Below are positions 38,183-40,435 of a DNA stretch of 64,000 nt, piece by piece. The position numbers and the translations under genes are program-made. The first letter of the stretch is position 1, and every line of letters starts with the position of its first letter. The notes beneath the pieces are model-generated. The model was not told where the DNA came from. It was given only the letters and a program-made list of their open reading frames with translations, and did no database searches. This DNA is from Myxococcota bacterium (GTDB lineage: Bacteria; Myxococcota_A; Polyangia; Nannocystales; Nannocystaceae), in NCBI GenBank assembly GCA_039028615.1, contig JBCCHT010000035.1, forward strand, positions 32,001 to 96,000, in the 5' to 3' direction.

Positions 38183-40435
38183 ATGCAAATCATCGATCCA
38201 TCCCAAGCTGCCGCCGGCTCCCATATCGCCGAACGCTCTCGTTTCGCCCACGCGGTGGACCTTGCCGTCGAGGACCTTCCGCATGACGACGCAACACTGG
38301 AGTGGTGGTACGCCAATGGCCATATTCGTGACACTGAAGGCCGAGAATATTCGTTGTTCATGGCGATCTTCCGCACCGCGGTCGAGGAGCTCGAAGATGG
38401 GACCTATCGCTGGGGCCACGCGCTGACCTGGGGACTATCGAGCCTCGACGAGCGCCGCTATATCGCAGAATGTCTGGTCGATCAGGACTCGGCAGAGATC
38501 GGCCTCGATCGCCTGGATCGAGGCATTGGACCCCAAGATGAACGCCTACGAAAAGCGCTGCGAGAGGTCATGGAGCGGGGTGAAGTGCCACGACCCGACA
38601 TCCAGCTCTCACGGCCTCCAGTGTCCGCCTCCGACCGTCTACACCTCGACCTCGATGAGCGAGTATTCGAATCACTCGGCGGAGATCGCTACCGCCTACG
38701 CCTCCATCACACCGAGCTGGAGGCCGGCTGCGAGCTGATCTTCCAGCTCGAAAAACCCATCGTACTGCACGGTGACAACGGCGTAGTCACCGGATCGACC
38801 CTGGACGAGATGTTCTACTACTTCTGCCCGCGTTGTTCGGTGGAAGGCAGCATCGTCGTCGATGGCGAACGCCGTGAAATTGCGTCGGGATCGTTCTGGT
38901 ACGACCACGAGTACGGCCGCGGCGACGATCCCGACGACAAGGCCTGGGAAGCGCGCTGGAACTGGATCTCCGCCCAGTTCGACAACGGCTGGGAGATGAC
39001 GATCTACGACGTCTTCGACAGCGACGACGGCAGCCCCACCGACCATGTCGCCTTGCTGATCGACCCCGAGGGTCGACGCCACGAATATCGAGAGTTCTCG
39101 TTCACCGGCGATCGGCCCTGGGTCAGTGCGCGCACGTTCCAGAGCTACCCGACGCGCTGGAAGATCGACATCCCGGAGATCGAGCTGTCGCTCGAAGCCA
39201 CGGCCCCCTTCCCCGAGCAGGAGTTCGTCACGTACATCACCAAGGCCCCGTTCTGGGAGGGCCGGGTCGATGTCCGCGGCACCTTCGCGGGGCGCCCGGT
39301 GACTGGCCCGGGCTACGTCGAGCGAGCGGGCTTCGGCGGCGTCGACAGCCTCGAGGATTTCTTCGGTGCCGTCGGTGATGCCACCCGTCGCTCGGTCCGA
39401 GGGATCTTGCCGAACGAGCCCAGCCGTGACGACCTGCTTCGCATCACCGCGGACGAAGAGCATCGGCACTACACCGACTCGATCGATCCGGGCCGCTTCC
39501 GCGAGACGGTCATCGAGCCCATCCGAGGCGTCGTCGATCGCGGCGGCAAGGCATGGCGGTCCTACTGCTTGCTCGCCTGCTGCGACGCGGTCGGGGGAAA
39601 CTCGCAGGAGTACCTGCCCTGGCTCGCGCTGCCCGAGCTGCTGCACGTGGGCTCGCTCATCGTCGACGACGTGCAGGACGATTCGGAGAACCGCCGTGGC
39701 GGCCCCGCGTGTCACCTCGTGCACGGCGTGCCCTTGGCCATCAACGCGGGCAACCTCAGCTACTTCCTGCCCTACCTGGCCATGAGCACGGTCGAGCTCA
39801 CGGAGGGTCAGCGCCTCGAGATCTACGACGAGTACTTCCGCGCCGTGCGAGCCGGACACGTCGGGCAGGCGCTCGACCTCGCGGGGCTGCTCCCGCTCAT
39901 GGCCACCACGGTGGACAGCGGCGATGCGAGCGAACTCAAAGCGCAGGTCCTGTCGACCCATCGCCTCAAGTCCGCAGCACCCGCCGCCGCGCTGGCGCGC
40001 ATCGGTGCGATCCTGGGCGGCGGGTCTCGGGCCCAGATGGAAGCCCTCGGTACCTATCACGAGAGCCTCGGGCTCGCCTTCCAGATCATGGACGACGTGC
40101 TGAACCTCCGCGGCTTCGAGCGCGACCTCAAGGACCGCGGCGAGGACATCACCGCGGGCAAGGTCACCGTGCCCATCGCCATGGCCATGGCCGAGCTGGA
40201 GGCCTCACAGCGCGCTCGCGTTCACCGAGCGCTCGAGGCCCACACCAGCGACCCGGACGAGCTGTCGTGGGTCCTGCGCACGCTGGAGGACACGGGTGTG
40301 TTCGACCGAGCCGAGGCCGAAGCGCGCCAGCTCGTCGAAGAGGGCTGGGCCGCGGTGGCCCCCCTGCTCAAACCCTCGGTTCACTCCGTGCACCTGCGGG
40401 CGTTCGGTTCCTTCGTGCTCGACCGGCACTACTGA
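38183..40435 (+). CDS. Fusion of a CrtC/AttH lipocalin-like domain and a trans-polyprenyl diphosphate synthase
   Basis: N-terminal half: PH...LEWWYANGH, FWYDHEYG, W.W.SAQFDNG, YPTRW, FWEGR, G.GYVE. C-terminal half: GGKAWR, FARM LIVDDVQD...RRG, GQALDL, KS, SARM FQIMDDVLN, EDITAGK. Confidence 0.9.
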   Translation: MQIIDPSQAAAGSHIAERSRFAHAVDLAVEDLPHDDATLEWWYANGHIRDTEGREYSLFMAIFRTAVEELEDGTYRWGHALTWGLSSLDERRYIAECLVDQDSAEIGLDRLDRGIGPQDERLRKALREVMERGEVPRPDIQLSRPPVSASDRLHLDLDERVFESLGGDRYRLRLHHTELEAGCELIFQLEKPIVLHGDNGVVTGSTLDEMFYYFCPRCSVEGSIVVDGERREIASGSFWYDHEYGRGDDPDDKAWEARWNWISAQFDNGWEMTIYDVFDSDDGSPTDHVALLIDPEGRRHEYREFSFTGDRPWVSARTFQSYPTRWKIDIPEIELSLEATAPFPEQEFVTYITKAPFWEGRVDVRGTFAGRPVTGPGYVERAGFGGVDSLEDFFGAVGDATRRSVRGILPNEPSRDDLLRITADEEHRHYTDSIDPGRFRETVIEPIRGVVDRGGKAWRSYCLLACCDAVGGNSQEYLPWLALPELLHVGSLIVDDVQDDSENRRGGPACHLVHGVPLAINAGNLSYFLPYLAMSTVELTEGQRLEIYDEYFRAVRAGHVGQALDLAGLLPLMATTVDSGDASELKAQVLSTHRLKSAAPAAALARIGAILGGGSRAQMEALGTYHESLGLAFQIMDDVLNLRGFERDLKDRGEDITAGKVTVPIAMAMAELEASQRARVHRALEAHTSDPDELSWVLRTLEDTGVFDRAEAEARQLVEEGWAAVAPLLKPSVHSVHLRAFGSFVLDRHY

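Follow-up and report, generated by a model that had tools for sequence, protein, structure and literature searches.

A barrel-synthase fusion in a Myxococcota gene cluster: a GGPP-type prenyl synthase joined to a candidate prenyl-chain hydratase

What reaction is served when a trans-prenyl diphosphate synthase is joined in one polypeptide to a beta-barrel of the AttH type? The question is raised by a gene at positions 38183 to 40435 of a 64,000-nucleotide stretch of DNA from a Myxococcota bacterium of the Nannocystaceae (contig JBCCHT010000035.1; the whole of this stretch is called the window). Judged from its sequence, the encoded protein probably combines a geranylgeranyl diphosphate (GGPP) synthase with an acid catalyst of the AttH type. 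The best reading, a tentative one held at somewhat less than an even chance, is that the barrel hydrates the prenyl chain to a tertiary alcohol. The parts of the gene on which the argument turns are as follows.

38183..40435, + strand: fusion gene, AttH-type double barrel plus trans-isoprenyl diphosphate synthase, 750 aa (open reading frame, Pfam, homologues, AlphaFold2)
38237..39346, + strand: N-terminal AttH/kievitone-hydratase-like double beta-barrel, residues 19-388 (Pfam; VIA-align Z 35.5 to 2ICH, 32.6 to 7A0Q)
38897..38914, + strand: WYDHEY, residues 239-244, with D241 as candidate catalytic acid, E243 as its partner and H242 at the calycin-latch position (alignments; invariant in 120/120 close homologues)
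39254..39322, + strand: WEG (358-360) to GYVE (377-380), with E359 and E380, retained or lost along with D241 (conservation among divergent members)
39347..40435, + strand: trans-prenyl synthase domain, residues 389-750, with GGKxWR, first aspartate-rich motif (FARM) DDVQD, RRG, Y527/F528, H559-x-GQ and second aspartate-rich motif (SARM) DDVLN (motifs, structure match)

A single intact gene encodes a real barrel-synthase fusion. The frame 38183-40435 (+) is translated without a stop into 750 aa, and its GC content by codon position (0.70/0.45/0.82) is typical of a real gene. The longest open reading frame begins at a TTG 141 bases upstream of the ATG at 38183, and the homologue alignments start only at about residue 21-25 of the ATG product. 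An earlier note on this DNA had described a double barrel of about 390 aa fused to a prenyl synthase, and the description is borne out together with its motifs: EWWY lies at residue 40, WYDHEY at 239, WEG at 358, GYVE at 377, DDVQD at 495 and DDVLN at 637. The checks which it proposed gave the same picture. All three Pfam profiles exceeded their cut-offs (CrtC PF07143, 4e-18; Lipocalin_9 PF17186, 1.9e-22; polyprenyl_synt PF00348, 1.3e-44), and Pfam found no further family in the protein, the helical cyclase domains PF19086 and PF13243 being absent. The AlphaFold2 whole-chain model from a 120-row alignment (pLDDT 93.4, pTM 0.91) has an all-beta N-domain of AttH-type fold and a helical C-domain of GGPP synthase-like fold, in a confident mutual arrangement. 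A canonical class I/II terpene cyclase is thus ruled out, as there is no helical cyclase domain and the N-domain is all-beta. Of 8000 candidates scored in the protein search, 1055 reached E<=1e-3, and 120 of these were listed. The three-family architecture is found in 120/120 of these listed proteins, and the 119 other than the query are 44-70% identical to it across 94-100% of its length; hence an assembly artefact or chance read-through is ruled out.

The synthase domain scores 152.8 bits against PF00348 (cut-off 27) and bears the FARM, the SARM, the RRG and the GKxxR of the isopentenyl diphosphate (IPP) site. K456, R459, D495/496/499, R504/505, Q634 and D637/638 are invariant in 120/120 close homologues, and the retention of the IPP-site residues argues against a synthase converted to a pure terpene cyclase. 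Alignment gaps confirm that the FARM has no two-residue insertion of the plant GGPP synthase type, and the small residues reported at -5/-4 are G490/S491. The segment from FARM to GQ is best matched by human GGPP synthase, a type III (human/yeast) enzyme, with Y527/F528 on its YF and H559 on its H-x-GQ; residues of this kind (yeast Y107/F108/H139) presumably close the pocket at C20, a role for which a literature search found no confirming paper. The fold of the domain is closest to the archaeal GGPP synthase of Pyrococcus (1WY0; Z 38.0, rmsd 2.2, 326 residues). The domain differs from both types in bearing a barrel, in forming its own clade and in falling below all NCBIfam cut-offs, for 16 synthase models match and none reaches its curated value (best 128 vs 468 bits). 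These alignments suggest that its product is likely GGPP. The fungal bifunctional synthases (fusicoccadiene, copalyl diphosphate, variediene) also carry a C-terminal GGPP synthase-like domain, which the synthase segment of the fusion matches. Those fungal enzymes pair it with an alpha-helical cyclase of class I or II, whereas the partner here is a beta-barrel without a class I/II cyclase motif.

The DDxxN form of the SARM had been noted to occur in eukaryotic-type GGPP synthases; it is present here (DDVLN) but not fixed in the family. In a divergent set of 150 best representatives plus the query, of which 96 are full-length (related members, not independent samples), the fifth residue is N in 57 and D in 31, so that DDxxN is not diagnostic, while the synthase motifs as such are retained in about 95%. 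The host genome holds 8 other PF00348 matches, and a fusion-type barrel (E<1e-100) was found in only 3/60 relatives. These counts rule out a housekeeping GGPP or quinone synthase, and a dedicated, non-housekeeping synthase of the GGPP type is supported. The fusion is an accessory gene.

The barrel is best understood through its fold. When its predicted model was compared with 48,161 chains, the top match was the AttH-like NE1406 (2ICH; Z 35.5), which is also the best sequence match (E 8e-20). Kievitone hydratase of Nectria haematococca (7A0Q; Z 32.6, rmsd 2.9 A, 300 residues) ranked second and is the closest characterised structure. The fungal pericyclases CghA (Z 25.0), Fsa2 and 7DMO (both Z 23.7) came next, and 25-phosphosteroid lyase (9FZN, 9G4C; Z 21.8, 276 residues) was the weakest of six clear matches, the seventh-ranked structure reaching only Z 9.6. 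By sequence, the family profile picks up just NE1406 and kievitone hydratase, and neither the pericyclases nor the lyase. Both Pfam profiles (PF07143 + PF17186), the duplicated barrel and the latch positions are those of the AttH-like superfamily. W42 and H242 stand at the Trp50/Arg214 latch positions of NE1406, His replacing Arg, under an offset of 21 between the alignment and the published NE1406 numbering with which W42/Trp50 is also consistent. The 'DHE' motif had been put forward as a site for mutation; its His, standing at the structural calycin-latch position, is probably not catalytic. A fungal decalin Diels-Alderase (CghA, Fsa2, Phm7) was rejected, the likeness being of fold only (11-12% identity, missed by the profile) and Pfam finding no polyketide synthase-nonribosomal peptide synthetase in the cluster. 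Tocopherol cyclase, another relative of the CrtC/AttH fold, gave no Pfam match in the fusion and no row among the structural matches.

Kievitone hydratase has the double barrel in common with the fusion, including alignable WYD, QE, YPxxW, EG and GxGxVE segments, and converts a prenyl C=C into a tertiary alcohol by hydration (PMC5805349). It differs in being a secreted, stand-alone fungal detoxifying enzyme with prenylflavonoid substrates, 18% identity and no synthase domain. NE1406 is likewise a stand-alone protein, as is Hgs, an AttH-like archaeal hydroxy-GDGT (glycerol dialkyl glycerol tetraether) synthase that hydrates isoprenoid lipid tails (10.1101/2025.10.20.683597) and is likened to the barrel by description rather than by sequence.

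Conservation within the barrel points to chemistry. W239, D241, E243, E347, E359 and E380 are invariant in 120/120 close homologues, and E40/W239/D241/E243/E359 are retained in 84/88 locus rows, the exceptions being the decayed L081 and L082 and two contig-end cuts. Among the 96 divergent members, 61 keep W239, D241 and E/Q243; E359 and E380, which lie outside the definition of this acid set, are present in all 61. In the other 35, E359 is found in 10 and E380 in 23. E347 is retained in 61/61 and 34/35, respectively. As D241, E243, E359 and E380 are retained or lost as a unit, the barrel is probably catalytic, and for the clade of this protein the pattern makes catalysis highly probable.

A genuine CrtC, from a Roseobacter photosynthesis plasmid, allows the candidate acid to be placed. 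Its segments HIWRPFAPR and GYFDANFG align with EDMFYYFIPR and GWYDHEFG of the barrel, and at this motif level Asp268 corresponds to D241, Tyr266 to W239 and Trp241 to F211. Mutation of the catalytic Asp of CrtC to Ala inactivates the enzyme, which takes geranylgeraniol as a substrate (PMC4717167). The barrel is nevertheless, as judged by these residues, not CrtC: the Asp is kept, Tyr is replaced by Trp and Trp by Phe, the His is absent and the alignment is weak. Kievitone hydratase likewise has W-Y-D and no His at the column of CrtC His239. A carotenoid locus with a CrtE-CrtC fusion was rejected, since there is no crtB on the contig, no CrtI bait match and only marginal CrtC similarity.

The family is widespread and apparently uncharacterised. 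It spans Myxococcota, Cyanobacteria, Bacteroidota, Actinomycetota and one amoeba, with members in Streptomyces, Kitasatospora, Chryseobacterium, Tolypothrix and the amoeba Willaertia magna. In GTDB genomes a relative is encoded by 365/435 pattern matches, and 80 of the 365 were kept as a locus set, mostly Myxococcota plus Cyanobacteria and Bacteroidota, with flanks of up to 8 kb and many shorter. No relative was found in viral contigs, and the RNA search listed no holder. A literature search made without most subscription journals and supplements found no published description of the fusion; the existing database label of family members is 'geranylgeranyl pyrophosphate synthase/predicted secreted hydrolase'. 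Three loci titled Klebsiella or Enterobacteriaceae (L055, L078, L079) have neighbours that cluster with Myxococcota loci, and their labels look wrong.

Members with decayed barrels and synthase-only members fall in several separate branches of the family tree (FastTree, with many weak nodes, and with some short synthase-only rows that may be fragments). For example, a Streptomyces series runs from an intact fusion through a decayed barrel (L082) to barrel-less genes (L104, L106); L082 and L104 both face an ABC transporter, and the synthase-only gene is thus in the same setting as the decayed fusion-length gene. These two (L104:7968-8993, L082:14983-17226) are Streptomyces plasmid genes with no tailoring genes alongside. 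Other members have gained domains. A sulfotransferase and a glycosyltransferase precede barrel and synthase in P0190 and L081, in P0156 with a weak glycosyltransferase match and in P0164 with none detectable; P0162 and P0168 are glycosyltransferase-barrel-synthase proteins. The single chains of L081:12622-17151 (on a Tolypothrix plasmid), P0156, P0164 and P0190 are about 1500 aa long, and L081 sits among DevC-type exporter genes near cysC. PX-domain versions, presumably eukaryotic, are P0126, P0192 and P0243; in P0192 and P0243 the synthase Asp motifs are lost, and these may be inactive partner subunits.

How might such a protein work? The C-terminal synthase would build a prenyl diphosphate, most likely GGPP, and D241, aided by E243, E359 and E380, would protonate a trisubstituted C=C of the chain or of an early derivative. 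Capture of water by the resulting tertiary cation would then yield a tertiary alcohol, the course taken in CrtC, kievitone hydratase and archaeal Hgs. Judging from gene content, the cytochromes P450, flavin monooxygenase and methyltransferases of the surrounding cluster may carry out later oxidation and methylation, and conjugation of the product's hydroxyl groups may fall to the sulfotransferase and kinase, a part that glycosyltransferases would take in related clusters. The fusion probably starts a terpenoid pathway not yet described; that it is the two-step entry enzyme of a dedicated one is, like hydration itself, put at just short of an even chance. Hydration is preferred because kievitone hydratase is the nearest characterised fold (its Z of 32.6 exceeds the 23.7-25.0 of the pericyclases and the 21.8 of the lyase), because relatives fuse glycosyltransferase and sulfotransferase domains, and because the barrel decays in several lineages. 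The four-domain fusions tie the product to hydroxyl acceptors, and the recurrent decay or loss of the barrel beside an intact synthase makes a dispensable modification likelier than an essential ring-forming step. The earlier proposal that chain synthesis is coupled to hydration or cyclisation in place of a missing cyclase is therefore supported in part: the fusion is real, the barrel probably catalytic, the synthase a dedicated one of GGPP type and the cluster free of a canonical cyclase. That the barrel replaces a cyclase is the less likely reading, as its nearest characterised relatives are hydratases.

Several points weigh against hydration. For NE1406, which matches best in structure, no reaction is known; the CrtC match is statistically weak (HMM 1.9 bits; hhalign probability 3.4%), and the essential His239 of CrtC is not retained, its column being D/Q/E/G among the 120 close homologues. 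The whole-domain fold of the synthase is nearest to an archaeal enzyme, and the G/S before the FARM is also compatible with longer chains. Four P450s and a flavin monooxygenase seem more than a linear alcohol would call for, and the hydroxyl acceptors could be supplied by P450s with no hydratase involved; none of five tailoring classes tested is present in 71/80 GTDB loci. Furthermore, the four-domain L081 and P0190 have lost barrel E243 and E359 although both glycosyltransferase and sulfotransferase remain attached, so that in some members the acceptor may have an origin other than the barrel.

That the barrel is a terpene-scaffold catalyst of a new structural class, cyclising or ionising the prenyl diphosphate that the attached synthase supplies, is doubtful. 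As a protonation-initiated (class II-like) cyclase, it would use D241 to protonate the terminal alkene and an aromatic-lined cavity to steer ring closure, with proton loss or water capture as the end step; this route is unlikely. No class I synthase, squalene-hopene cyclase, phytoene/squalene synthase or UbiA (PF19086, PF13243, PF00494, UbiA) is matched on the 136-kb contig, and cyclase baits from the host's own genome match 0/89 fusion loci, a flank test of limited sensitivity. A dedicated P450 accompanies the fusion in 5/80 GTDB loci and in none of the annotated loci is a canonical cyclase its neighbour. Ten barrel aromatics are invariant among the close homologues, CghA and Fsa2 of the same fold form rings, and the mechanism of CrtC was modelled after squalene-hopene cyclase (PMC4717167). 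However, the ring-forming relatives are pericyclases of 11-12% identity ranked below the hydratase, and the barrel decays or vanishes repeatedly while the synthase stays intact. The absence of a cyclase, noted earlier, holds for the contig and not for the genome, where PF19086, PF13243, PF00494 and UbiA are matched 9, 2, 5 and 11 times elsewhere; the 9 class I synthase and 2 squalene-cyclase matches could act in trans. The earlier list of chemistries on this fold, hydration and cyclisation, had overlooked phosphate elimination. The barrel might remove (di)phosphate by acid-assisted C-O cleavage to leave an alcohol or hydrocarbon, which is improbable, as is the corollary that the fusion is a metal-free counterpart of fungal prenyltransferase-synthase fusions. 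The conjugation of a product requires its release, yet Pfam finds no phosphatase gene in the cluster; host phosphatases are able to release prenyl alcohols. Arg is enriched at 195, 361 and 381 (110, 111 and 118 of 120 close homologues) and could bind phosphate, but the query has Leu at 195. The model for this chemistry, 25-phosphosteroid lyase, eliminates phosphate from an isoprenoid side chain after the action of a phosphotransferase-family kinase (PMC8449060, PMC11061730); it has the barrel fold, performs isoprenoid C-O chemistry at a tertiary carbon and works with a kinase, and the fusion is itself in translational coupling with a kinase gene. On the other side, the lyase is the remotest of the six clear fold matches (13% identity, missed by the profile), catabolic and unfused to a synthase.

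A non-catalytic lipocalin, which binds or passes on the hydrophobic product or tunes chain length while the synthase alone sets the chemistry, is likewise improbable. It would account for the 35/96 divergent members whose barrel is without the acid set, for synthase motifs persisting in about 95% and for synthase-only members nested in the clade, and NE1406 has been interpreted as a lipid binder (PMC2954199). A carrier would not need buried acids that are invariant in the query's clade and lost together elsewhere. Least probable of all, and very much so, is a catalytic barrel that acts late, on a P450-modified or prenylated-acceptor intermediate rather than the direct product of the synthase. 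Kievitone hydratase does act on prenylated aromatics (PMC5805349), and Hgs favours the product of a partner desaturase (10.1101/2025.10.20.683597). There is, however, no prenyl-acceptor transferase on the contig, most loci are without the tailoring genes that would make a late intermediate, and the fusion is old and confidently packed (pTM 0.91).

Whichever step the barrel performs, its product would enter a gene set with the following members.

28975..29961, + strand: S-adenosylmethionine (SAM) methyltransferase 1 (Pfam)
29997..31415, + strand: second, stand-alone AttH-type barrel, with WWQHA instead of WYDHE, the candidate acid missing (Pfam, alignment)
31645..33015, + strand: P450a, member of the fusion-associated P450 family (Pfam, identity comparisons)
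33012..33956, + strand: SAM methyltransferase 2, best solved matches 3BUS, MitM and 4PNE (Pfam, structure-database match)
34057..35517, - strand: P450b, same dedicated family, true start probably nearer 35400 (Pfam, identity comparisons)
35516..36847, + strand: sulfotransferase, Sulfotransfer_3 (Pfam)
36855..38002, + strand: DUF1214 and DUF1254 genes (Pfam)
40435..41775, + strand: APH-family small-molecule kinase, its ATG overlapping the TGA of the fusion (45% identity to the kinase adjoining cyanobacterial fusion L009)
41803..43125, + strand: P450c (Pfam)
43187..44734, - strand: flavin monooxygenase (Pfam)
44747..45592, - strand: FkbM-family methyltransferase, relatives of which adjoin fusions in other phyla (NCBIfam/locus comparison)
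45589..46887, - strand: P450d, 36% identical to P450c (Pfam, identity)

This orphan 18-kb cluster (28975-46887), centred on the fusion, thus holds 4 P450s, 3 methyltransferases (two of class I and the FkbM one), the flavin monooxygenase, a sulfotransferase, a kinase, a second barrel, DUF1214 and DUF1254. Its GC content is 64.7% vs 68.3%, a value equally low in 10/640 genome windows, and its tetranucleotide composition is matched in atypicality by 18/640; together these suggest an acquired island. A relation of the kinase to 25-hydroxysteroid kinase was considered and dropped, as a PDB search gave no useful match. The FkbM gene was considered as a possible IPP methyltransferase and is unsupported in that role: no solved structure matches it, and PMC9401056 and PMC10881772 make Lon23 GPPMT-like and do not apply the name FkbM to IPP methyltransferases. 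Nor is there evidence that the cluster is linked to enhygromic acid, an orphan diterpene of myxobacteria (PMC6226438).

A dedicated P450 family accompanies the fusion across phyla. P450a and P450b are 30-38% identical to fusion-adjacent P450s of Spirosoma, cyanobacteria and L019, as against <=29% to other P450s of their own genome, and the L019 fusion is sister to the query fusion (tree support 0.976). At least one of the five tailoring classes occurs in 9/80 GTDB loci (dedicated P450 in 5, GT1/GT28 in 7, FkbM in 4, lipase-maturation-factor (LMF)-like in 3, kinase in 2), and in 40 further GTDB loci there is a conserved gene of 200 aa, a membrane protein of 595 aa, or both. Phytoene/squalene synthase baits match 2/89 fusion loci and the CrtI bait 0. 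In metagenomes, a P450 bait gave 67 loci, 18 of which score >300 bits; the fusion is present in 5/18 of these and in 0/49 others. Four of the 13 high-scoring loci without a fusion end near the P450 and carry an LMF-like gene, five are <5 kb, and the other four are similar loci with a truncated P450 and FkbM amid ABC permeases. A second member of the P450 family lies on a 5.3-kb contig without the fusion (G063). No dedicated P450 was found in the 400 genomes of one phylum that were searched with <=4 candidates scored each.

These findings bear on annotation as well as chemistry. In hundreds of genomes the fusion is annotated as 'polyprenyl synthetase', and in some of these it lies in a cluster that has its own P450 family. 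If the barrel hydrates, an unknown class of hydroxy-terpenoid lipids or of sulfated/glycosylated terpenoids would follow, and AttH proteins would gain a biosynthetic role. Cyclisation or ionisation would mean a new fold for terpene synthases; a barrel that acts as scaffold catalyst would add a third architecture to the assembly-line terpene synthases, one that stands at the head of clusters without a cyclase in several bacterial phyla and in some protists, and current terpene rules would misfile such genes as plain polyprenyl synthases. The family offers natural controls in its intact, decayed and barrel-less members and in its single-chain four-domain versions.

Several minor observations concern the neighbours. 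The kinase and second barrel of the cluster are reminiscent of the kinase/lyase dehydration tandem of anaerobic sterol degradation. L112 also has a second barrel (DUF7064/7065), beside a PPDK-type kinase, and no PDB match was found for it. The 595-aa membrane protein (L042:10227-12017) and the 200-aa protein (L042:7216-7821) have relatives in 31 and 35 of the 80 loci and flank the fusion in many Myxococcota; the former has no Pfam match, a PMT_2 (GT-C) lead on 11% of one cluster and unlinked paralogues in the host genome, and the latter a weak DUF2378 match. A 750-aa LMF-like membrane protein stands beside the fusion or P450 in L010, L018, L035, L107, L108, L110-L113, L115, L118 and L119. Within the window, cobalamin biosynthesis genes lie to the left of the cluster (5388-26421; cobU by Pfam, cobW, cobN and others by eye), and 47698-51909 (+), in the same lower-GC stretch, encodes a 1403-aa protein with LGFP repeats and N-terminal Trp-rich repeats (weak DUF346). 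In L019, a GDP-mannose dehydratase and an epimerase lie between P450 and fusion with a glycosyltransferase behind (5912-7944), which suggests a fucosylated product.

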